From the IMG/VR virus record IMGVR_UViG_3300033149_003774: DNA of 64,000 nt; one strand, given 5' to 3'. The DNA comes from an uncultured virus (IMG/VR IMGVR_UViG_3300033149_003774). Its lineage: Duplodnaviria > Heunggongvirae > Uroviricota > Caudoviricetes. Every line of letters starts with the position of its first letter. The first letter of the stretch is position 1. The notes under the pieces are model-generated. The model made no database searches. It was given only the letters and a program-made list of their open reading frames with translations, and was not told the DNA's origin. Made by a program: the position numbers and the translations under genes. Below, in pieces: positions 1,489-62,115 of the stretch.

Positions 1489-2349
1489 GTGATGGTGGAC
1501 AGGACGACCGAGAGTAGTATAGCCATCAGAAAAAGATTGCGAGAGGAATACATCAAAGAGCTTTATGAATCATTCCCCAGTATGGAACTCGTCCCCCTTT
1601 CCAGAGATTTTTTGGAGGGAGTGCATAGATCTGGTTTGCTCGTTGCGGGAGGTAGGGGAACTGGGAAATCCAACGTCGCCAAAATTATTTCGAGTCAGGT
1701 TATTAATGATCCAGAGAGTGACACACAGATAAAGATTTCCGACACGACCCAGAATTGGATTCATGGATTTGAACCTATATACTATCGACCCGTTACCGAG
1801 GATATGATCATTCCAGACGATGTTTATTTTGGGGAGGATCATTTTCTCTATGACGTGGAACTGTGGGATGTCGATATGATTCAGGATGTTCTTGGGGCAT
1901 TTGTGGGCATAGATTATGATGTTCAGAGGCTCTTCAAGAAAAATGATGTGATGGATAACTGGATAATATGGGTGATAGAGGAGGCACAGAACCTTCTTGG
2001 AACTTATGCACTTAACGGAAAACGGGGAAAGAGATGGCTAAAAATTATAAGCGAAAGTCGCAATTTCAACTTAAACTTTATCTGGATTGGACAGAGACTT
2101 GCGGATATTTCAACGAAGGCTGTAGAGCGGTGCCAGTCCTACCTGTTTGGAAGGATGACGGGGGATAATGATCTCAAGAAGATAAGGAGAATCTGTGGAA
2201 AAGAGGCTGAAGTTCATAAGGTTGTTCCACGACTGGGAATAGGAGAATTCATCTATTGGGATGGTTCCGATGCCAAAAAGGTTATAAATGTTCCACTCTA
2301 TACTTCACATACAAAACCCATGCTGTGGAATGGGAGGGGGAGAAACTGA
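1489..2349 (+). CDS. P-loop ATPase, HerA/FtsK/VirB4-like superfamily
   Basis: Walker A GGRGTGKS, Walker B IWVIEEAQ, downstream SRNF...IWIGQR motif typical of FtsK-HerA ATPases. Confidence 0.8.
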   Translation: MMVDRTTESSIAIRKRLREEYIKELYESFPSMELVPLSRDFLEGVHRSGLLVAGGRGTGKSNVAKIISSQVINDPESDTQIKISDTTQNWIHGFEPIYYRPVTEDMIIPDDVYFGEDHFLYDVELWDVDMIQDVLGAFVGIDYDVQRLFKKNDVMDNWIIWVIEEAQNLLGTYALNGKRGKRWLKIISESRNFNLNFIWIGQRLADISTKAVERCQSYLFGRMTGDNDLKKIRRICGKEAEVHKVVPRLGIGEFIYWDGSDAKKVINVPLYTSHTKPMLWNGRGRN

Positions 2350-5260: not shown

Positions 5261-5464
5261 ATGAAAGTAACCCTGATATCTGCCGACGGGGACGCGCGAC
5301 GGATCGAGGTCGAGGACGGCTTCACCATCGCGGAGGTCTTCGAGGCGGCAGATAAATATCTCGGCGGAGGTCGCGTGAGCCTCAACGGGGAACCCGCAGA
5401 TGCGGATACACCTGTTGAGGAAGGCGACGTTGTAGCCGAGGCGAAGACCGCGGAGGGGGGTTAA
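5261..5464 (+). CDS. ubiquitin-like (beta-grasp, ThiS/MoaD/SAMP-like) protein
   Basis: 67 aa; MKVTLI...IEVEDGFTIAEV...SLNGE...TPVEEGDVV pattern; C-terminal Gly-Gly immediately before the stop. Confidence 0.85.
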   Translation: MKVTLISADGDARRIEVEDGFTIAEVFEAADKYLGGGRVSLNGEPADADTPVEEGDVVAEAKTAEGG

Positions 5465-5478
5465 CACCCCTTTTTTTC
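5455..5478 (+). terminator. putative terminator after the Ubl gene
   Basis: gggg-ttaaca-cccc hairpin followed by a T7 tract. Confidence 0.45.
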
Positions 5479-11449: not shown

Positions 11450-13070
11450 ACAGAAAAAATGTTTTATGAAATAACCCCCCTACCCCTTTTTTCATTCTTC
11501 TAAAAAATAAAAGAGGTGGTTCATATTTTAAAAACATCACCAAAATAGGTAAATTATTGTGATTGGTTTACCCCAGAATTCTCCTACTTTTTATTAGTAT
11601 TTTTAGAAATATTATTTTGAGATTTTATTCCTAAAATACTATAAATATCTAATGGTTAAAAAATGAAAAAAAGAGTATAATAATCATATATGTATAATTC
11701 CTTCTACTTACTTTTTTTGATAACTAAAACTTACCCGACTGTAGTTTATTATTGAAGATGAATATTGTAGTTGAATTGTGTATTTGATTTATGATGTTGG
11801 TTGTGTAATTATATATTTGATTTATGATCATAAACGGCGAATTGTGAAAATGATCATTAAAGATGGATAAATGAGTAGTTATATTTTTATTACTTTTAAC
11901 GTTTATTGAATTAATATTTAAGTGTTTATCGGTCCGTAAACCGCCGCTCACGACCATTTTTAATACGATAATACGGCGGTATGGTGTAATATAAGCATAT
12001 CGGCGTTATGGATAAACGTAAATCGCCTTCAATTCCGTAAAATAAAGCCTAAAAACGGCTTTTTTTTGAAGACAATAATAGATCATAATACCCGCGATAT
12101 TTCGTATTATCACTAACGATATTAAGACCTAAAACAAGCTCAAAAAATGCCTCACTATATCCATAATCTTCAATTTTAACGTTTCAAATATTTTTTATTC
12201 GTAATACTCATATTATTATATTCACGTTATTACGCGCGGACAGACTTTATGTCCAACTACATCCGCGTTTTCCGCCGAAAGTAAATTAACATTTTTGATA
12301 CAATTCAACGCCCTATCAAAAATCGACGAGCCGCGTTTTTAACATAAAAATGTTTATTCAATCTTCATTAAAGGCTGAACTTTTCACTTTATTTTTTTCA
12401 CAAATAGTTTACACCGCGCGGTCGATTTTTCCATATTAAAATTATAGAAAAATAGCTAAAATTAACATTTTTGTATTTCCCGCCCAACGCGTTTAAGGAA
12501 TATATCAATCTGGCGGTAAAAACATAGATGAGTTTAACATAAATGTGTTAAAGCATAAAACCAATACCGCAATAATTCGATAAAAAAACCATAAAAACAT
12601 AACGGATCGTATTGTTTTATATTTCACCGTCGAATTTTATCGAAAACATCAAATAACGTGAATATTATTGATCTAAACCATACATCCATATCATATTTCA
12701 CCGCAATAACGTGAAAAATACAATTGGAGGGAACAATCATAATTTTTATTATTTAGTGAAGGATTGCAACACTTTCAAATATTTTTAAATTTGGTTTTTA
12801 ATTTTTTTGTAGTTGAAGCTGAAAACGCCGTCAATTTAAACATTTTTCGTTAAAAGGCTTTTTTATCGATTTATTAAATTTAGGTAGCGCGGAACTTAGG
12901 GAAAAAAAAATATTTTTTCCGCGTTTGGCGCGCGTCCGCGGCTGAGACCCTTTAAACTATTCTCTATTTATATTATGATGTTTGATTTATGAAGTTGAAT
13001 TGTAAAAAGAATAAAAAAACGGATGGAGGTCCGCGGACCCCTAAAATCCGCGGGTATATAGTATGTGATG
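11450..13070. other. long AT-rich non-coding region (candidate terminus, origin or control region)
   Basis: about 1.6 kb with no credible ORF; repeated aaattaacatttttg; many CGCG motifs. Confidence 0.55.
11684..11712. repeat. 29-bp imperfect direct repeat, copy 2
   Basis: tcatatatgtataattccttctacttact, 27/29 identical to 4821-4849. Confidence 0.8.
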
Positions 13071-16985: not shown

Positions 16986-17334
16986 AATAATGGTTCATAA
17001 TAAACTAACATCATTTTTCTCTTTTTTTTACCGCACGCTCATTTTTACGTTTAAAGTTTTTAAAAACAATTTTTCAGGATCAGACCTTTTTATCACCATT
17101 TAATAAAACCTGAAGCGCAGGTCCCCGCGCGGACCCGTGAGCGGACCCCCTCAACCAACTTCATCACCGCCGCACAAAAAATATTTTTTTTCATAAAGTC
17201 CATCGTTAATTATTTTTCAGCTATTCGATGTTAAAATAATCCAATGGGATATAAAACGCGCACTAAAATAACCAAAAATAAATAATTGAATAAAATAAAA
17301 AACTTATACAAAACACTATGATCCTGATCTCTAA

Positions 17335-17760
17335 CATACTTAATGAATATATATTTTTATATTAAAACACTTAAGGAGTATGCAATTACATCATACTATA
17401 CCTTAAGGGATGTATCTATATTTAAGGATTTAAGGATATAATTTTTACTTAAGGGATGTATTCTTATATTAAATATACTTAAATGATGTACTCTTATATT
17501 TAATACCTTAAGGAATATGCTTATTTAGTTATTTACATACTTAAGGGTAATATTCTTATATTAAAAACATTTAAGGGATGTATCTATATTTACTTAATGG
17601 ATGAATGTGTTAAGGGTAAATGGATAGTTATTTATTTAAGGATATAGTTAAGGGATAGTGATAATTAATAAGGTTAAGGGATGTATCTATATTTAAAATA
17701 CTTAAGGGTAATATCTCTTTCCACACTAATACTTAAGGGTAGTATCTCCTTCCACACTAT
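17335..17760. repeat. degenerate tandem repeat array, consensus about ACTTAAGGGATGTATCTATATTT
   Basis: roughly 15 TTAAGG-cored units, many about 30 bp apart; ttaagggatgtatctatattt occurs three times. Confidence 0.75.
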
Positions 17761-17784
17761 TCTTTCATTAATTTAAGAGTCTCA

Positions 17785-18062
17785 TATGGGAATAATATTT
17801 AGTTATTTGATTTATGAACATAGGAATAATTAATTAGTATGAATATAGAATAATAATTAATTATTTGAACTGTAGGAATATTTAGTTATTTAATTTATGA
17901 TCTGTAGGAATAAATAATAAACATAAACTATGAGAATAATTAAATTAATGATCTGTGGGAATAAATAATTAATATGTGGCTGGGGGAATATTGGATTATT
18001 GAATATGATTATTATAGATGAATAGTAGGATTATTTAAACATCATAAACATGGGAATAACAT
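17785..18062. repeat. second degenerate repeat array with GGAATAA/AGAATAA core
   Basis: about nine copies in very AT-rich DNA. Confidence 0.55.
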
Positions 18063-18679
18063 TTGATTAATAATATTACACATGAATACTGCACATGAAC
18101 ATCAGCAGGAGTGGAGTATTGTGCGGTAGAATACATCTTTAATGCAACACTACACCCTCCCCCTCCATCCAATTAACACGTTTAGTGCAACGCGTGCTGT
18201 GCGCCCAATATTAGCTAAACTCCCCTACCCCCACACTTCAATCATCGCTAAAACTAAAGTTAGCTAACACGCACTAAATCTTCATACATATCAATATAAA
18301 TTAACTAGAATTAGTGTTACTCTTAATACTCCCCCACACTTAATAAAATTTAGCTAATATTGGGTATGGGGACTCTCATACCTTTGTAGTATGAACATTT
18401 TCGTAGTGATACTACTACCGCACCAATAAAAAGATTTATAAGAAAATTAATTAATACCCTTCTATAGTACGAATATTTTTGGGGTGATTCTGATGATGTG
18501 TTCGTGATGGATGTTTGTGCTGTGTTTTTTGCTTTGGGAGGGATGAGAAAATAATTGTAAGTCTCCATTATTAATAAAGAGATTTGTAGAAGAAGATGAT
18601 GTTAGATGATGGAGGAGAGAAGAACGGAACGTTTTTATATGTGTGTTATATTGTTTTGTGTAGAGGATGATGGAGTGAT

Positions 18680-21977: not shown

Positions 21978-22109
21978 TAATGCTACTATCGTTCTAGTCG
22001 TGGGGGATCAGGGGAACCACAATGTTTAAATATAAGATTTGTTTTACTAATGGAGGATGAATAATATGATGGAATCTTGGGAAAGACCTCCACAGGAAAT
22101 TTATGATAA

Positions 22110-22796: not shown

Positions 22797-23288
22797 ATGT
22801 TGTGGTTTACGGCGGATCATCATTTTGGGCATTCTAATATAATTAAATACTGTAATCGTCCATTCAAGTCAGTAGAACATATGAATGCGGAGATGGTGCG
22901 TCGGTGGAATGAGAGAGTGGCTTCAGAGGATAGAGTTTTCCATCTGGGGGATTTTTGCTTCGAGGGGAACTCCCGCTCAGAAACATTCAAGTCTTGGACG
23001 AATATACTCAACGGTGAGATCATCTTGATCCGTGGCAACCATGATAGATGGAGGAATTCTCGTATAGTTTCTGCCGATATAAAACTAGGAGGTCGTCTCA
23101 TCCATCTCAGCCACCGCCCAGAGTTCGTATATGAACTGAATTTCTGTGCTCACGTCCATAATGGATGGAGGGTGAAGAGGAAGGACAGAAAGGTGGTGGT
23201 GAATGTGGGCGTAGATGTTTGGGACTTCTACCCCGTAACACTAGCGGAAATACTGGATGTGATCAAGAATGAAGAGGGAAATCTTTAA
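22797..23288 (+). CDS. calcineurin-like metallophosphoesterase
   Basis: DHHFGH, HLGDF, GNHD, HVH motifs. Confidence 0.9.
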   Translation: MLWFTADHHFGHSNIIKYCNRPFKSVEHMNAEMVRRWNERVASEDRVFHLGDFCFEGNSRSETFKSWTNILNGEIILIRGNHDRWRNSRIVSADIKLGGRLIHLSHRPEFVYELNFCAHVHNGWRVKRKDRKVVVNVGVDVWDFYPVTLAEILDVIKNEEGNL

Positions 23289-23483
23289 ATACCAGTACTT
23301 GATACAAGTCGTTGGTTGAAATGGGAATTGGAAAAATTAATATCGAAGGAGGGCATAAAAAATAACTGTTCGTGTTTTACACGCGCGTGAAATACCACTA
23401 ACTCACCGTCCACGTAATGTCTTTCACCGTAAAATCCACGAACATGAACGATGGCTTGCCAAGAAACGCCGACAACATCAATC

Positions 23484-23503
23484 ATTTCTACGGAGGCTGA
23501 GGC
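23484..23503. repeat. 20-bp exact direct repeat, copy 2
   Basis: identical to 22110-22129. Confidence 0.85.
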
Positions 23504-23565
23504 ATTAATGGAGCTGTGTCTATGAACCGAAATGTTTAAATATATAAGTACCGTCTCTTTTTTGC

Positions 23566-23758: not shown

Positions 23759-23917
23759 ATGAGAACCTTTTCCCTGACGACGAAACCGCTTTCATGGAGG
23801 AAGCGTTTGAAATTGATCTGGATACTTCTCTTGACGGGGCGGTTCGATCTAACTGCGGAGTATGATTGTGACTCTATAAAAATAGGGGAGGTAGGAAGTA
23901 TTGAAAAAGGGAAATAG
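23759..23917 (+). CDS. small hypothetical protein
   Basis: GGAGGAG RBS, MRTFSLTT... Confidence 0.5.
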   Translation: MRTFSLTTKPLSWRKRLKLIWILLLTGRFDLTAEYDCDSIKIGEVGSIEKGK

Positions 23918-23952
23918 AAGAGTAATGGAAAGGAGAAATTGATTTTGGTGAA

Positions 23953-24144
23953 GTGAAAATGATGAGGCAGGAAGCAAAATTACCAAAGTGTTCTTACTGT
24001 GATCGGGTTTTGAGAGATGAACTTTGGCTTGAGATCTCTTCTGTAGAAGATGGAAAAATAGAAAAACGTTTGATTTGTCCGAGATGTCTTATGCGAGCCT
24101 TTGATGAAGTTCTCTCCAAAAAAACGGAAAACCACAATATTTAA
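23953..24144 (+). CDS. small zinc-finger protein
   Basis: CSYC...CPRC. Confidence 0.6.
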   Translation: MKMMRQEAKLPKCSYCDRVLRDELWLEISSVEDGKIEKRLICPRCLMRAFDEVLSKKTENHNI

Positions 24145-24179
24145 ATATAAGCGCGTGATAGAGTTATATGTTTCATCGT

Positions 24180-24370
24180 ATTCCCCCAAGGGGCATATGG
24201 TGGAAACGCAGAACCGCACCAGCACAAGTGTCGGGGGTAGGCTGGTTGAAGCATGGGACTTCACGAGTAGGGTCATCGGCGGAGCATAGTTCGACCGTAG
24301 TGAGAATGTGAGAGATAAGATGGAATATAAGAAGAATATGCGGTTCGGAACCCCGACCCGACAATTTTTC
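24180..24370 (+). ncRNA. putative pseudoknotted non-coding RNA (element E)
   Basis: gaaccgca/tgcggttc; accagc/gctggt hairpin whose loop gtcgggg matches 3' ccccgac; tgaag/cttca; TTTAAATA upstream and T-tract downstream. Confidence 0.55.
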
Positions 24371-24675
24371 ATTCCTAATTGGGAATTAAAAGAGGTTGTG
24401 TCAGACAAAGGTTTTTTGTTTAAAAAACAATAACAGCAAAATGTTTTTATGTATAATGCTCTTCTATAGTTATTTGATGAGTGGGGATGGGGAGGACCGA
24501 GGATGAGGATTGTGTGTTTTATAGATAAAGAGGGACATATTGGAACTTGCACCAATTTTGATTCCGAGGGGGACTGTGAGCATTGTAGTTTCTATCAGAA
24601 ATATAAGGGAAGGGAGAGCGAGGAGTTCTCTTATGTCTGTTGGATAGGCGAATTAGATAAGGGACAGGAAGTAAT

Positions 24676-24951
24676 ATGATTGTTTATCACGTAACATCAA
24701 TATCTAAATTTCTAAGATATCTTAGAAATGGGAGGATAGGTCCACCTGTTAGAGCGTGGGAAACAATAGAGGAAGCAGAAAGATTTAGTAAACAGACAGG
24801 GAGACAGATAATATTGAGATTGAAGTTCCCCGATAATGCAGAAAAAATGAAGGGACATAAGAACAAAGCAAGAATATTAAACAAACCGATATTTGTTTCT
24901 GATGTTTTTAATGGATGGAGTGGAGTGAGAAAATACACTCCATCTATTTAG
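24676..24951 (+). CDS. hypothetical protein (possible ADP-ribosyltransferase-like fold)
   Basis: N-terminal VYHVT motif only; fold guess is weak. Confidence 0.5.
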   Translation: MIVYHVTSISKFLRYLRNGRIGPPVRAWETIEEAERFSKQTGRQIILRLKFPDNAEKMKGHKNKARILNKPIFVSDVFNGWSGVRKYTPSI

Positions 24952-34281: not shown

Positions 34282-36282
34282 CTAAATCACCGCATATCTA
34301 CCCGTTTCTGGAGAATATACATCTGTACTTAGAGCATCGCTTCTTAAAAGTTTTTTCAATTCCTTCCTATCCATAAGACCGCTTACCGCCTCAGCAAGTT
34401 CATCAAAACTCAATCCAGTTCTTGGGAATTTTTCTAGTTCAGCAAGTATTGCTTGTTTCTTCTTTTCTTGTGTCAGCGGTTTTCCAGTTTCTATTATACC
34501 TATATCTATCTTTCCAGAACTTGGGTCATATCCCGCCGCTTCCAAACTACCCCTCAACAACTCTATAGCCAGTTCAGCATCTTCTTCATCAGCAATGGAT
34601 TTTAGAGCCATTCTCGCACTAGCTTCAGTCAATCGACGCAGACCCTCCCCCTGTCGTGCTGTAATGGGTATTGGGTTCTCTCCTATACCCCCAGACAATT
34701 TTCTCATTTCGATGTAGAAGTCAACTATTTTCTTTAGTGCCTCTTGGCTTATTTTCGGTTTTATTGTTTTAGAATATAATATGTATTTTTTCAGTAGTTT
34801 ATAATCCATCATCTTTTTTTCCTCGGCACTAAAATCAACATTAAGTATTTTTTCTATTAATTCACGATCCTTTTTCTCGTCTGGTTGATCTTTTATGATG
34901 AAGATGAGATCGAACCTTGAGAGGATTGTCGGAGGGAGTGAAATATTCTCTGTAAGAAATTTATATGGATCATATCTACCACCAGAAGGATTTGCGGCGG
35001 CTATGACTCCAGTTCGCGCATTTAAGGTCATATGTTTGTCAGCTTTATGGATGCTCACCGTTCCAGTAGACATCGCTTCATGTATTTTTGTTCTGTCCTT
35101 ATCATCCATTTTCTCAAGTTCATCAATAGCACACAAACCCCTATCCGCGAGAACCAACGGTCCAGCTTCCAATCTCCATCCATTCTGATCTTGTATTGCC
35201 GCCGCCGTAAGACCTACACCACTTGCTCCCCTTGCAACGGTATAGATGCACTTTGGCGCGGCGTTCGTCGCCGCAAGCAACATTCTAGTTTTTGCCATAG
35301 AAGGATCTCCAACCAAAAGAACGTTAATAGAACCTCTGTGTTTTATATCGCGTTTTTTATGTTCAACACCACCAAATATCGCTAAGGCAAGACCATATTT
35401 TTCCATTCTGTGTCCATGAATAGAAGGAAATATTGAGTCCACTATTATTTCCTTTATTCTTGGATTTGAAGACCAATACACTAATTCTTCTTTTTCCTCC
35501 TCAGACAACTTCTCATCTATGATGTTCTTGTTCAAAACTTCTATATTATTTGCTTCCAAGAACCAATCGAAGATCCGATCCCTTCCTCCCCGCCTCGGTA
35601 CGACAAAAAGAGAACACACAATGCGTACTAAATCGCCAGGTTTACATATATCAATGAGATGTTTTCCTATTAATTTTACCTTTATGATTCTCGGTACAAC
35701 TCCCATTTCTACTTCTTGTGGGTTCTCCTGTAACCATATTTCTTGATAATCATCCCATTCAGATTTATTTTCTTCTAATATGAATCCTCTTTTGTTTCCA
35801 CAGATACATTTCATTGGTTTTATTAATTCATTTGAGTTTTGATAAACAAAAAGATCCTCTTCGCATTTTGGACAATGGAAAAACGCCTTTGTCAATATTG
35901 AACGGGGAGAAGAACTACTCGTTACAACACCAGTAACAGTCATTAGAGTATTAATGTCGCTAGATGAAAGTTCTCTCACTTTTTTGTTGTTTTCGACGTT
36001 TTTCAGCCACACTCTGATCTTTTTTTCTGTTTTTTTACCCCCTCGTTTTTCAATTTCATTATTAGTTTTTGTTGTGATGAACTCGTCTATATTTCCCCTT
36101 CCGTGAAAAAAACGCGCGTAGTCCTCTTGAACTTTTTTTCCTGCTTCCTCACTCAAATCATCGAAATCAAGTAAAAAAACATTATGATCTTTCTCTAATA
36201 TTTTTTCAAAGCGTTCTCTGTATTTGTCTGTTTTTAATAATGCATCAAACTCATCCAAAAAAGTAGCGTCCAAACCACACAA
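34282..36282 (-). CDS. mcm: MCM replicative helicase
   Basis: Zn motif CPKC...C-C, GDPSMAKT, IDELEKM, AAANP, SRFD, ITARQ. Confidence 0.95.
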   Translation of the reverse strand: MCGLDATFLDEFDALLKTDKYRERFEKILEKDHNVFLLDFDDLSEEAGKKVQEDYARFFHGRGNIDEFITTKTNNEIEKRGGKKTEKKIRVWLKNVENNKKVRELSSSDINTLMTVTGVVTSSSSPRSILTKAFFHCPKCEEDLFVYQNSNELIKPMKCICGNKRGFILEENKSEWDDYQEIWLQENPQEVEMGVVPRIIKVKLIGKHLIDICKPGDLVRIVCSLFVVPRRGGRDRIFDWFLEANNIEVLNKNIIDEKLSEEEKEELVYWSSNPRIKEIIVDSIFPSIHGHRMEKYGLALAIFGGVEHKKRDIKHRGSINVLLVGDPSMAKTRMLLAATNAAPKCIYTVARGASGVGLTAAAIQDQNGWRLEAGPLVLADRGLCAIDELEKMDDKDRTKIHEAMSTGTVSIHKADKHMTLNARTGVIAAANPSGGRYDPYKFLTENISLPPTILSRFDLIFIIKDQPDEKKDRELIEKILNVDFSAEEKKMMDYKLLKKYILYSKTIKPKISQEALKKIVDFYIEMRKLSGGIGENPIPITARQGEGLRRLTEASARMALKSIADEEDAELAIELLRGSLEAAGYDPSSGKIDIGIIETGKPLTQEKKKQAILAELEKFPRTGLSFDELAEAVSGLMDRKELKKLLRSDALSTDVYSPETGRYAVI

Positions 36283-52877: not shown

Positions 52878-54491
52878 TTACCATATGCTTATTGTTTTAT
52901 TTGATATTTCTGGAAGGATATTAATGACATCAGGTTCATAGTCTATCATACTATAGATGAGGGAATCGAATGAGTGATCGTTGTGCTTGAGTATATTTCC
53001 GCTGGAGTCATAAGATAGTTCCGAGAGCGAATTAATAAGGAATGTAAATTTCTTTGGAATGAATAATTTATGTTGTTCTATAAAACGCTTTGTTTTTTGG
53101 ACATAGTAGTGTTTTTTCACTCCCCCTCCCAATTTCCAAATGTGTGGTGTGGAATAACCCTTATCTTCTAGGATTTGAAGCATCATTCTTTCTTCAGGAT
53201 CAGCAAATACGATCCATACGTGATATTGTTTTAGTTTTTCTTCTACCCAATTAAGAACCTCTTCCGAACGTAGTCCAACCCTTTCATCGCTATACAAAAC
53301 ATAGATTATACCTTCCCGTTCCCCAGGCACAGTCATAGCGTTGGGCGCAACATCTCCAAAATCTATACCCACTCTTCTGTTGCCTATCATACTAAGTTCC
53401 AGTCCCTTCTTTTTCATCATAGGACAATATTCTGTATAAGGTCTGCACTCATCACACGGTTTGCCATTTTCGGTCCATTTTGAGCCATCACAAATGCAAG
53501 CCGCCAAGTCCTCTCGACTAAATACCAAGCCAGTACCTTTGGAGATTCCACCGAGAATTTCTACGAGCCATTGATCATCAGAACTTCTCTTGCGCAGGTT
53601 CTTTATGTTTTCTGTAGTCTCCCACCAGACATTACTTATCCAATGTTCTGGATTTTTATCCTTATATAAGACAGTATCCACGTAGTCCCAATTTGGTGTT
53701 TTTCCATCCTCCAAGAACCATTTTGGGCTTATATGTCTAGCCATACTCCATCTATAACGTTTATATCCTAGTTTTTTGTAATTCTTCCACATCTTTATGA
53801 ATATTCCAGTCGCCAACTGAGCAGTACTGATGTATCCTAAGATGGGATCAGGAGAACTCGTAGTTTGGTATGCCGCCGCCTCTATCGCCGCCGCACCCTC
53901 CTTGCTTTTTCCCTCTCCAGAACACACCTCATCTATATGAACTTCTCTTACATGTGGACTTCGCGCTCCCGTTTGACTGCAAGCCGGAAAGTAGACTATT
54001 GATCCCCATTTGGATTCTATATGTGGAGGTTCTTTTGTGCTTTCAACAGAACGTGAAACACAACGATTGATCTCATCAACCTGATTACGCCAGAAATCTA
54101 TGTAGCGTTTACACTTCATGTTTTGTGAGGAGGAGCCGCCCATAATGGTCATAGTCCAATAATCAAAACAGCACATACGCCAACAGGCATAGATGGCTAG
54201 AACGTAGGTCTTCCCAGCACCTCTTGCGGCGAGTAAGACATATCCAGCGAAGCCGCGCTTCCACAGGTCATTCAAAAATGTTTTTTGTCCCTCTGAAAGA
54301 ACGTTGAACTCTGGAATTCTACCAAGATCTGGATGCATTGGATTTTCTGGCCAACATGGAAGAACCTCTTGGGCAAATCTTACTGGACCAGCTTCTCTCC
54401 AGTATGCGCGCCACTTCTCTATTTCCTCTTCTGGATCTTTCTTTTTGCGCTTTCTTTTGACCTTCCGAAGTTTTTTATATCCAAGCGACAT
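52878..54491 (-). CDS. terL: terminase large subunit
   Basis: AARGAGKT, VHIDEV, IST coupling motif, GIDFG, ADPE, NDHSFDSLIY. Confidence 0.9.
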   Translation of the reverse strand: MSLGYKKLRKVKRKRKKKDPEEEIEKWRAYWREAGPVRFAQEVLPCWPENPMHPDLGRIPEFNVLSEGQKTFLNDLWKRGFAGYVLLAARGAGKTYVLAIYACWRMCCFDYWTMTIMGGSSSQNMKCKRYIDFWRNQVDEINRCVSRSVESTKEPPHIESKWGSIVYFPACSQTGARSPHVREVHIDEVCSGEGKSKEGAAAIEAAAYQTTSSPDPILGYISTAQLATGIFIKMWKNYKKLGYKRYRWSMARHISPKWFLEDGKTPNWDYVDTVLYKDKNPEHWISNVWWETTENIKNLRKRSSDDQWLVEILGGISKGTGLVFSREDLAACICDGSKWTENGKPCDECRPYTEYCPMMKKKGLELSMIGNRRVGIDFGDVAPNAMTVPGEREGIIYVLYSDERVGLRSEEVLNWVEEKLKQYHVWIVFADPEERMMLQILEDKGYSTPHIWKLGGGVKKHYYVQKTKRFIEQHKLFIPKKFTFLINSLSELSYDSSGNILKHNDHSFDSLIYSMIDYEPDVINILPEISNKTISIW

Positions 54492-59565: not shown

Positions 59566-60165
59566 ATGAACAAAATAGCATTTTGCCATGAATGTGGGAA
59601 AGAATTTATACCTAAGAATTCAAAACATAAATATTGTTCATATAAGTGCAGAATTAAATCTACTAACCGAAGATTTATGGAAAGGTATCACTCCAACGAA
59701 GAATTTAGGATGAAGCACATAGAGACCGTGAAAAAATCTCAAAAGAAATACTTCGTACCAAAGGAACCAAAAAGATATTCTAGGATTTGCAAATATTGTG
59801 GAAAAGAGTTTATTGCTTATAAAATACACCAAGTTTTTTGTTGCAGTGTGTGCAGTGGAAAATATTTTAGAAAAATCTGTAGTATGAAAGCATCTATGGC
59901 ATTAGATGAAGCCTTTAAAGAGAGATTTACCGAAGAACAAATAAATATATTTAATGAATTAGCAGATCGACAACAAATAGGAGAGGATATTATATTAGAT
60001 GATTCATGTAAGGTTTGTGGAACAAAAGAGGGTAGGTTAATAGTACATCATATTTCTTATAATCCCTTAGAGTATGTTACATTATGTTCAAGTTGTCATC
60101 AAATACTACATACTAGATTTCTGGGCAAGGTTAGAGTGTCACCTCAAATTGTACGCCAAAAGTAA
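59566..60165 (+). CDS. HNH endonuclease with zinc-ribbon repeats
   Basis: two CxxCGKEF...CS..C repeats; CKVCG...HHISY...LCSSCHQILH. Confidence 0.8.
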   Translation: MNKIAFCHECGKEFIPKNSKHKYCSYKCRIKSTNRRFMERYHSNEEFRMKHIETVKKSQKKYFVPKEPKRYSRICKYCGKEFIAYKIHQVFCCSVCSGKYFRKICSMKASMALDEAFKERFTEEQINIFNELADRQQIGEDIILDDSCKVCGTKEGRLIVHHISYNPLEYVTLCSSCHQILHTRFLGKVRVSPQIVRQK

Positions 60166-60270
60166 AACAATTATGTTTTTTTGTTACATAGGAAAAGTGT
60201 CAGACAAATTATCTCTTTTATTTTCAATAAACTTTATAAGTATAAATTAATGTATATATATAGAAGAAAG

Positions 60271-61188
60271 ATGATAACAGTAGAAGAAACCCTAAAGTCA
60301 GCCGATCTACCTAGTGATGTAATTCCCCATTTGATATGGAAGGAAGTCCTCTTAGGCGCGCAGAAGAGACGAGTGTTCCTAGAGGGAGCGACTATAACAA
60401 ACCAGCTACAGGGCGATATGGGGACGAAGATTAGTGTTCCCTACCTCTCCACGAAGTTCACCGCCGCAACCATTTCAGAAAGTTCCCTCGATTCGAGCGG
60501 CTATACTGTTTCCGATCTTGCTGTATCTGATACGGATATAAGTGTAGGAAACCAAGTTTATGTTGCGTTCCGTCTTTCATATGTTCTAAGAGAAGATCAG
60601 CCTCGCTACGATTGGGTTCAGTTGGCCATTCGAGATGCTGGTCGTGCTGTGGCGGTCTATGAGGATGCCGCAGTAAGGGACGTTCTTCTCGCTGGTGCTG
60701 GAAATAGCCAAGCGGCAGGAACGGCGGGTACTCTAACATATGATGACATCATCAACACTCTAAGCCTTATGAAGGCTGATGGTTGGTTCCCAGACGATAT
60801 AAAACCACTTCTGTATATACACCCAGATCAGGAAGCAGACTTGCTCAAAGATACCACATATGTTAGCGCAACCACAAACAGGTACGCTGTCGGTAGTCTT
60901 CCAGAACTCCCTGGCGCAAACTATATGACACAGGCGGATACCGAAACGATCTATGCTGGTTGCAGAGTCAGGGTCACGGATAATATGACGAAGGCTCTCG
61001 CACTCATCGTATTCCCAGAACATCCACAGTTTGGACCAACTTACATCCACGCCATCAAGAGACCTTTGACTGTTAGAACCGATGACGAGGTACTCTATGG
61101 TAGGCAGTTATGGACGGTAAGCACCAGATACGGGACTGCGGTAATGAGCGGGAATGCGGACGGCGTGGGTCTTATAACCAATTGTTGA
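60271..61188 (+). CDS. major capsid protein (HK97 fold)
   Basis: VIPHLIWKEV, GTKISVP, LYIHPDQEADLL, IYAGCRVRVT, TRYG pattern. Confidence 0.8.
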   Translation: MITVEETLKSADLPSDVIPHLIWKEVLLGAQKRRVFLEGATITNQLQGDMGTKISVPYLSTKFTAATISESSLDSSGYTVSDLAVSDTDISVGNQVYVAFRLSYVLREDQPRYDWVQLAIRDAGRAVAVYEDAAVRDVLLAGAGNSQAAGTAGTLTYDDIINTLSLMKADGWFPDDIKPLLYIHPDQEADLLKDTTYVSATTNRYAVGSLPELPGANYMTQADTETIYAGCRVRVTDNMTKALALIVFPEHPQFGPTYIHAIKRPLTVRTDDEVLYGRQLWTVSTRYGTAVMSGNADGVGLITNC

Positions 61189-61287: not shown

Positions 61288-62115
61288 TTGCCTGATTATA
61301 TCGAAGAGTTGTTCTGTCCTAACTGTGGCTCTGAAGAGAAGAGAAGCAAAGGCAAGAATTGGCAATGTAAAAACTGCGGGCGTCATTGGGTTAAGAAGAG
61401 ATATATTGGTCCTAGGAGAAGGAAGAAAGACCATGTTCCGTGGAATAAGGGACTCACCAAGGAAACCAGCCCCATTATAGCCAAGGGAACCAAGAAGTCA
61501 AAGAAAACACGTCAAAAATTAATTGACGCTGGTATCATTAACCCAACTAAAAATCTTCCACCTAAAAAATATAATGTGTCTAAAGAAGAACTTTATGATC
61601 TTTATTGGAACAAAAATTTATCCACTTATAAAATTGCAAGAAAGATTGGCTGTCATCAAAGTTTAATATCCTTACTTCTAAAAAAGTATGGAATAAAAGC
61701 AAGAAATCGTGGCGTTGCTGGTGCTATGGCTCGTCGTTCAAAACAGCCTGAAATCAACAGGAAGATTTCAAGGGCGTTGAAGGGTAACACGAACTGGGTT
61801 TTTGGTGGCAACTTTCCTAATAAGGAAGAGAAGAAGATTATTACTTTTCTTGCGAGAAACAATCTTCCTTTTCGCTATGTTGGCGATGGTAGTTTTCTTA
61901 TCGGCGGAAAGAATCCAGATTTCATTTGTGAGGAGTCAAAAAAAGTTATAGAGTTTTTTGGGGAGCTTTGGCATCCCCCTTCTCATAGACGGAAGCGTGT
62001 AGAGTTTTTTGCTAGTTATGGATGGGATTGTTTTGTTATCTGGGGTAAAGATATGTCGTCAGTAGAGAAGAGAAAAATTCTTCTTCAGCGTCTTTTGGAA
62101 TGGTTTTCTAAGTAA
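61288..62115 (+). CDS. homing-type endonuclease (NUMOD/HTH plus Vsr-like PD-(D/E)xK domain)
   Basis: PWNKGLTKET, LSTYKIARKIGC, PDFI...VIEFFGELWH. Confidence 0.75.
   Translation: MPDYIEELFCPNCGSEEKRSKGKNWQCKNCGRHWVKKRYIGPRRRKKDHVPWNKGLTKETSPIIAKGTKKSKKTRQKLIDAGIINPTKNLPPKKYNVSKEELYDLYWNKNLSTYKIARKIGCHQSLISLLLKKYGIKARNRGVAGAMARRSKQPEINRKISRALKGNTNWVFGGNFPNKEEKKIITFLARNNLPFRYVGDGSFLIGGKNPDFICEESKKVIEFFGELWHPPSHRRKRVEFFASYGWDCFVIWGKDMSSVEKRKILLQRLLEWFSK

Follow-up and report, generated by a model that had tools for sequence, protein, structure and literature searches.

The region at 24128-24420 of a 64,000-nucleotide (nt) stretch of DNA from an uncultured tailed virus (IMG/VR record IMGVR_UViG_3300033149_003774; the whole stretch is called the window below) is an orphan unit within a cluster of small early-type genes. 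An earlier note, made from the letters of the DNA, had described positions 24180-24370 as a candidate for a stand-alone pseudoknotted RNA. Our analysis gives good support for reading the region (the target) as a plus-strand transcription unit of its own, with a predicted length of 200-250 nt. Its product may be a small non-coding RNA of this size, a reading that we favor while holding it with less than even confidence; both the ends of the transcript and its non-coding nature are predicted here from the sequence. Small units of unknown product are common in the early regions of viruses, and one more orphan would be of modest interest. Showing that uncultivated tailed viruses of archaea carry structured small RNAs of their own would matter, and to our knowledge archaeal viruses have so far yielded very few characterized non-coding RNAs.

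Promoter, start and end of the unit

From its gene content and the matches of its MCM helicase (described below), the window probably represents a novel tailed virus whose host is an anaerobic archaeon, and this host reading bears on how promoters and terminators are read here. The target promoter lies at 24128-24152 on the plus strand. It consists of the TATA octamer TTTAAATA at 24140-24147 and, upstream of it, an A-rich transcription factor B recognition element (BRE) that is found in the plus orientation only; a BRE followed by a TATA box is the architecture of archaeal promoters. The stop codon of the upstream gene, which encodes 63 amino acids (aa), falls inside the promoter. Such burial of an upstream stop codon in the next TATA box was seen twice, at 23286-23288 and at 24142-24144.

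A promoter scan showed that the motif (g)aaaca-TTTAAATA, an A-rich element followed by the TATA box, with gaaacaTTTAAATA as its typical form, recurs at 21 distinct sites in the window. By our count, 11 of the 21 sites precede an open reading frame (ORF) of at least 30 aa that starts +26 to +41 from the TATA start, and in 4 of these 11 the ATG is of the leaderless type, at +29 to +32. The same motif was found ahead of genes in the related metagenome contigs L016-L023, with ATGs at +27 to +44, and in these contigs as in the window the leaderless ATGs stand about +29 to +33 from the start of the TATA box. The target promoter and the one at 22013-22037 are identical at 21 of 25 positions (counted by eye). 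The target thus has a BRE and a TATA box about 25-30 nt upstream of the predicted start in the form of the genome's own consensus, as expected of an archaeal promoter-driven unit. The promoter match, taken with the leaderless spacing, suggests that transcription begins near 24168-24172 on the plus strand. More generally, the consensus with starts at about +29 to +33 allows the transcription units of this virus group to be predicted from sequence.

Downstream of the target, T-tracts are present at 24365-24369 (T5), 24412-24417 (T6) and 24444-24448. Transcription would end at one of the first two tracts, before the promoter-like site of the next gene. Placed by the promoter position and the T-tracts, the predicted primary transcript runs from 24170 to 24369 on the plus strand (about 200 nt) and could extend to the T6 tract. 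A terminator scan made no call at the site of the hairpin and T5 tract (24339-24369). The promoter-like site of the next gene, at 24438-24457 (plus strand), is weaker. It carries aaaatgTTTTTATG at 24438-24451, with the gene at 24503 about 50 nt further on; it is read as a putative promoter by analogy with ccgaaatgTTTAAATA at 23535, and it departs from the TATA consensus. Because a consensus promoter and T-tracts precede this site, we read the region as its own unit. In this respect the earlier note, which had pointed to an own TATA-like box and T-tract and had called the candidate stand-alone, was right, and the promoter proved stronger than that note could know.

Predicted fold and the pseudoknot model

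The target contains a GC island. The GC fraction at 24200-24299 is 0.58 vs a window mean of 0.39 (standard deviation 0.07), and 0.58 is reached by 0.7% of 100-nt windows. We predicted the nested fold of 24170-24369. At the 5' end, GUUUCAUC (24170-24177) pairs with GAUGGAAU (24319-24326) in a closing helix that encloses the GC-rich domain (24170-24326, plus strand). The mean pair probability of this helix was 0.59 when the RNA started at 24170 and 0.97 when it started at 24168, and the helix was lost when the start was moved to 24175. The predicted fold further contains a small GAAG/CUUC hairpin at 24248-24262 (pair probability 0.78), an imperfect hairpin at 24273-24303, UCAUCGGCGGA...UUCG.CCG..GUGA (0.36-0.72), and a local, terminator-like GC hairpin (24339-24348 with 24353-24363; 0.67-0.95) that is followed by the T5 tract, all on the plus strand.

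In the proposed RNA, the elements that are robust in thermodynamic terms would therefore be the helix at the 5' end, a GC-rich 5' domain with two or three short hairpins, and, beyond a linker rich in purines, the GC hairpin at the 3' end with U5. The linker includes 24296-24338, which had been described as a long unpaired purine-rich stretch. It is indeed rich in purines (77%, with one C in 43 nt) and is unpaired when 24180-24370 is folded, but in the fold of 24170-24369 it is partly paired with the 5' end. To give one example of a possible role, this stretch might base-pair with a host or viral transcript.

A different fold had been proposed in the earlier note: an 8-bp stem closes the RNA, and the loop of a hairpin pairs with the 3' tail, in a ribozyme or a scaffold/guide-type RNA. 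The complementarities themselves are all in the sequence. GAACCGCA (24211-24218) and TGCGGTTC (24339-24346) are perfectly complementary (8/8), as are GTCGGGG in the loop (24230-24236) and CCCCGAC in the tail (24351-24357; 7/7), and ACCAGC (24218-24223) with GCTGGT (24241-24246) forms a 6-bp hairpin whose 17-nt loop contains the G-run. The two long-range helices cross, as a pseudoknot requires. When the closing stem and the hairpin were forced, the energy was -49.3 kcal/mol, to which the loop-tail duplex would add about -12.8, whereas the minimum free energy (MFE) of the nested fold was -55.6; once a pseudoknot penalty, assumed here and not computed, is allowed for, the two folds are of about equal energy. 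Element A, described below, has the same layout.

Neither energy nor pair probabilities support this fold, however. In the nested ensemble the closing stem had a pair probability of 0.00-0.01 and the 6-bp hairpin 0.15-0.35; in the ensemble of 24170-24369 the hairpin had 0.15-0.18 and the loop-tail helix reached 0.00-0.07. The values for the stem and the loop-tail helix are low because their 3' strands pair with each other as the arms of a local hairpin, the 3' GC hairpin, which is mutually exclusive with both long-range helices. The G-run also has at least three alternative C-run partners, including CCCCC at 24183-24187 (probability about 0.4) and, one register over, 24357-24363. We made 2000 shuffles of 24180-24370 that preserve its dinucleotides; 12% of them contained a helix of at least 8 bp, and 1.65% contained a crossing 8+7 pair. 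Since the site had been picked from 64 kb, about 5 such crossing pairs per strand would be expected by chance over that length. We conclude that the pseudoknot could form but that the evidence does not point to it.

The proposed functions fared no better. Rfam 15, which includes self-cleaving ribozymes, riboswitches, RNase P, the signal recognition particle RNA and C/D and H/ACA small RNAs, gave no match at gathering thresholds in the whole window. When the limit was raised to E values up to 10 over 23800-24800, the Rfam comparison, a check that the earlier note had suggested, gave two matches; these fell short of threshold by 23-41 bits, and neither was in 24180-24370. We also weighed, by eye only, whether the RNA might be of C/D-box, H/ACA or RNase P-like type, readings that had no support from Rfam. 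A search of the masked window for an antisense target found none beyond chance, the best minus-strand match being 16 nt at 94% (E = 0.59), and Pfam and PHROG scans of the window proteins turned up neither a nuclease nor a reverse transcriptase or Cas-like gene near the target. The target does share with the H-type pseudoknots of preQ1, SAM-II and fluoride riboswitches and of pistol and hepatitis delta virus-like ribozymes a hairpin loop able to pair with a 3' tail. Unlike the H-type pseudoknots in Rfam, it has about 100 nt and a further helix between the two strands, and it matched no family at E values up to 10. A ribozyme or a scaffold/guide RNA with the pseudoknotted fold is therefore, in our estimate, very unlikely indeed.

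Evidence for and against a coding function

No plus-strand ORF that starts downstream of the target promoter is longer than 47 codons. ORFa (24168-24311, plus strand, 47 codons) has its ATG at the leaderless position +28, but it is probably not coding: its codon log-odds were -0.055 to -0.143, as low as only 0.6% of real-gene windows, and a homologue search found none. ORFc (24320-24436, plus strand, 37 codons) is probably not coding either, with log-odds of -0.033 to 0.068. It contains the T5 and T6 tracts, whereas about 0.19 runs of T5 or longer would be expected in 114 nt at the rate found in genes. We also rejected an antisense ORF of 191 aa (23980-24555) as a spurious by-product of the purine skew; its purine fraction is 0.43 and its log-odds -0.18, and it matched only itself in 5.8 billion clusters. 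The non-coding scores of ORFa and ORFc, the spurious antisense ORF, the GC island in a genome of 39% GC, the 3' hairpin with U5, and the precedent of elements A and C in the same genome all support a small non-coding RNA. Archaeal small non-coding RNAs are transcribed from BRE/TATA promoters and end at oligo-T. As a class, the small non-coding RNAs of archaea and their viruses share with the target an own promoter, a length of 200-250 nt, the lack of a convincing ORF, a GC island in an AT-rich genome, and a terminal hairpin with a U-tract; the target differs in having no Rfam match, no homologue that was found, and no RNA target that was found in the window.

Several observations weigh against this reading. 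An energy below that of composition-matched shuffles, a general mark of structured RNA, was not seen for any of three choices of ends: the MFE z score was +0.26 for 24180-24370, where 118 of 200 shuffles folded at least as well, +1.32 for 24205-24368 and -0.36 for 24170-24369 (the minus strand gave +0.33). Element C, by comparison, has a z score of -2.69, with 2 of 200 shuffles as stable. The 3' end is uncertain, because runs of T5 or longer are not avoided in genes (83 in 50,088 nt of sense-strand gene sequence, or 1.66 per kb), which makes the T5 tract weak evidence of a terminator. No homologue of the region was found in any collection searched (phages, IMG/VR, JGI metagenomes and GTDB). 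The purine fraction of the region, 0.61, is gene-like, vs 0.47 for element A. The near-identical promoter at 22025 (22013-22037) precedes genes of small proteins, the first of which is a leaderless ORF of 29 codons. Finally, there are coding signals in ORFb (24197-24289, plus strand, 30 codons, MVETQ...VIGGA), a candidate micro-ORF whose ATG is preceded by AAGGGG. In the full model its codon log-odds was 0.203, a value higher than that of 35% of real-gene windows and reached by 3.2% of the non-coding windows that are free of stops. With local genes held out the value was 0.116, and the neighboring small genes scored 0.054-0.222. Purines occupy 0.81 of its first codon positions, and the duplex of its Shine-Dalgarno (SD) site has an energy of -5.4 kcal/mol, vs a median of -5.2 for genes and -3.0 for random sites.

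These coding signals would be explained if the unit were an mRNA for the micro-protein ORFb, with a leader of 25-29 nt, AAGGGG as an SD-like site, and the remainder as a 3' untranslated region with a terminator hairpin. All neighboring units encode small proteins, which also favors this explanation, as does a unit at 10051-10206 of L023, the closest related contig. That unit, 150 nt long, GC-rich and situated between two consensus promoters, encodes a hydrophobic peptide of 40 aa, MVSHFATVSHFERVPILGRLVGIAGLVMIASIVLSPHQNL. It carries the G-run/C-run complement GGTGGGGA/TCCCCACC, a warning that such complements also arise inside small genes. On the other side, the ORFb signals appear insignificant alone or after correction, the frame having 29 codons and three frames having been inspected; no homologue was found among 1.84 billion representatives, and Pfam gave nothing. 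We regard the micro-protein as a real contender that is nevertheless somewhat unlikely.

ORFb and ORFc lie in the same frame. Between 24197 and 24433 the only stop in frame 3 is a TAG at 24287-24289, and the two ORFs are separated by this TAG and ten codons. They could be halves of a 78-codon gene that has decayed, was mis-assembled, or is read through. The 78-codon frame scored 0.080, above 18% of real-gene windows, and its only match among the PHROGs, phrog_20683, covers residues 15-65 and thus spans the TAG; in addition, ORFc stops 8 nt short of the next promoter-like site. However, the PHROG match is not significant (E = 0.06), 8% of sense off-frame windows scored as high as 0.080, and a second frame scored 0.073 despite 9 stops, which suggests that the score reflects composition. 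TAG recoding was considered and rejected, as TAG is an ordinary stop that ends 21 of 77 genes. The read-through product had four matches among the 1.84 billion representatives, all long eukaryote-type repeat proteins and spurious, and tblastn against phages gave only E values of 2 or more, at chance level. A single-sequence AlphaFold2 model was poor, with a predicted local distance difference test score (pLDDT) of 52 and a predicted template modeling score (pTM) of 0.20. The T5 and T6 tracts in ORFc also speak against one continuous gene. We therefore consider an interrupted gene improbable; the off-frame windows that score as high, the weak PHROG match and the poor model count against the micro-protein as well.

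The upstream complements of the 3' hairpin raise a further explanation, that the region serves the genes downstream of it (24503-24951) as an attenuator or a long 5' leader, in which 24211-24218 and 24230-24236 compete with the 3' hairpin and U5 and so set the level of read-through. The complements to both hairpin arms are perfect, the downstream genes are on the same strand, and the site ahead of 24503 is off the TATA consensus. The target resembles the hairpin and U-tract terminators and the hairpin-based attenuators of bacteria in that U5 comes directly after a GC hairpin (24339-24363), both arms of which have complements upstream. It differs from them in that its host is read as archaeal, oligo-T alone being the known signal there, and in that no regulatory ligand or protein is indicated. 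Archaeal RNA polymerase terminates at oligo-T and is not known to use attenuation that depends on hairpins, which counts against an attenuator. Between the unit and 24503 there are also two further T-tracts and a promoter-like site that could plausibly act separately, no riboswitch family matched, and the other genes here have leaders of only 0 to about 15 nt. An attenuator thus seems very unlikely.

Other small-RNA candidates, relatives and the surrounding genome

Two other plus-strand elements of the window bear on the target, as the earlier note had seen in the pairing of an internal G-run with a 3' C-run an echo of them. Element A (281-446) has a consensus promoter, CTTAAATA, at 281-288, and its RNA would span about 312-437 (about 125 nt; GC 0.62, purine 0.47). 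A 9-bp closing stem (312-320/416-424) starts at the predicted start, +31 from the TATA box. A 7-bp hairpin, GCTTACC/GGTAAGC, carries GGGGGA (371-376) in its loop; the complement of this run, TCCCCC (426-431), is followed by T6 and T8 tracts at 432-446. Its codon scores, -0.17 to -0.29, are negative in every frame, and its z score is -0.79. Element C (955-1146) has the consensus promoter TTTAAATA at 955-962 and would yield a GC-rich RNA of about 160 nt (about 985-1146). Its 7-bp closing stem, GCGCACC at 985-991 with 1125-1131, again starts at the predicted start (+30 from the TATA box); a G-run lies at 1068-1073 and a C-run at 1138-1141, in a CATCCCC tail that is followed by T5 at 1142-1146. 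Neither element has a credible ORF or an Rfam match. They share the motifs GCGGAGG, GGGGGAG(G)TAAG and CATCCCC, and a search of IMG/VR with this shared pattern found nothing.

The likeness of the target to A and C is one of layout. All three have the same type of promoter, could form a closing helix at their predicted 5' end, and contain an internal G-run complementary to a C-run before a T-tract. The likeness does not extend to sequence, as a three-way alignment of A, C and the target showed no block of homology. The closing stem of the earlier note starts about 40 nt past the predicted start, whereas those of A and C start at it, and the target is purine-rich (0.61) with a z score near 0, while A has a balanced purine fraction (0.47) and C is more stable than its shuffles. 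A C-run followed by a T-run is, moreover, a general gene-end motif in this genome, found at 5467, 11483, 61258 and 62146. A and C raise the prior that the virus makes small RNAs, from which the membership of the target does not follow, and they are better small-RNA candidates than the target in the window. It is quite improbable, in our view, that the target, A and C form a set of promoter-driven, structured viral small RNAs in which a G-run in a loop captures the C-rich 3' tail by an oligo-U terminator. If they did, the pseudoknot at the 3' end might act as a switch for termination or shield the RNA against 3' exonucleases. We know of no described RNA class of this kind, as no Rfam family matched and a literature search found nothing relevant.

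Searches for relatives of the region gave mostly negative results. A blastn comparison with 50,697 phage records (INPHARED) gave no match; two exact or gapped target patterns found nothing in IMG/VR, and an exact 24-mer found nothing in GTDB genomes. In JGI metagenomes the antisense ORF, used as a degenerate probe, gave pattern matches at 332 stretches, 0 of them confirmed. A search with the 63-aa neighbor protein gave 34 pattern matches, none confirmed. A metallophosphatase probe found 15 IMG/VR loci with identities of up to 48%, which had only that gene in common and nothing like the target. With the MCM helicase as a probe there were 197 pattern matches in GTDB genomes, none confirmed. The family of a 355-aa protein (24 proteins) led to 8 metagenome loci, and the same alignment found nothing in IMG/VR. 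The nearest relative, contig L023, shares seven genes in the same order, with 56.5% aa identity for MCM and 58% for an epimerase. Synteny stops after the epimerase and the target region is absent; only the promoter motif, over 18-22 nt, matches the target. ARAGORN found no tRNA or tmRNA gene in the window. We considered a tRNA-derived attachment (att) site, since a T-arm-like sequence, GGTTCGGAACC, was noticed by eye at 24342-24352, and rejected it: the sequence has G at the expected A58 and no D or anticodon arm in register, there is no cloverleaf and no match, and no integrase was found among the 20 window proteins scanned against Pfam and the 57 scanned against PHROGs.

The archaeal host reading draws on the following genes. 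A full, archaeal-type MCM helicase is encoded at 34282-36282 on the minus strand (Pfam MCM, E = 3.7e-76, with oligonucleotide-binding and lid domains); in a tblastn search all 19 of the 19 records that it matched were viruses of archaea, with identities of up to 33%. The window also encodes an anaerobic ribonucleotide reductase (NrdD), the terminase TerL, a capsid protein of HK97 type and several DNA methyltransferases. TerL had no match in IMG/VR or in the phage collection. The source contig of the window, as seen in the protein collection, is 85,907 bp long.

The target sits in a 358-nt gap between two small plus-strand genes. The upstream gene (23953-24144) encodes a 63-aa protein with two CxxC pairs and the downstream gene (24503-24679) a Cys-rich protein of 58 aa, and the genes that flank the target in general encode small Cys-rich and unknown proteins. 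Nearby, at 23288-23535 (plus strand), there is a further unit with a consensus promoter (TATA at 23284). It is overlapped by no plus-strand ORF of at least 40 aa, its longest ATG-started plus-strand ORFs having 27 codons, and it contains a 66-aa ORF on the minus strand.

Some features elsewhere in the window were noted in passing. There are two terminase-like genes, one at 1489-2349 (plus strand) and one at 52878-54491 (minus strand); beside the full TerL of 537 aa, there is a 286-aa protein whose match to TerL profiles is confined to their C-terminal nuclease part. Two HNH endonuclease-like genes, at 59566-60165 and 61288-62115 (plus strand), stand on either side of the major capsid gene (60181-61188), and this arrangement may be a trace of homing-endonuclease traffic. 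Long AT-rich non-coding stretches occur at 11500-13070 and 17300-18100. The latter is rich in CTTAAGGGATGTATCTATATTTA-like and GGAATAA-type repeats that resemble an iteron array, and it may be a replication origin served by the viral MCM. Finally, a GC-rich (0.61) ORF of 67 codons at 5261-5464 (plus strand), with Gly-Gly at its end and a G-run/C-run hairpin and T7 tract downstream, showed a weak match to the ThiS family (E = 3.7e-4; 21.4 bits vs a cutoff of 22.5). Its predicted product is possibly a virus-encoded small modifier of the ubiquitin-like or small archaeal modifier protein (SAMP) type.

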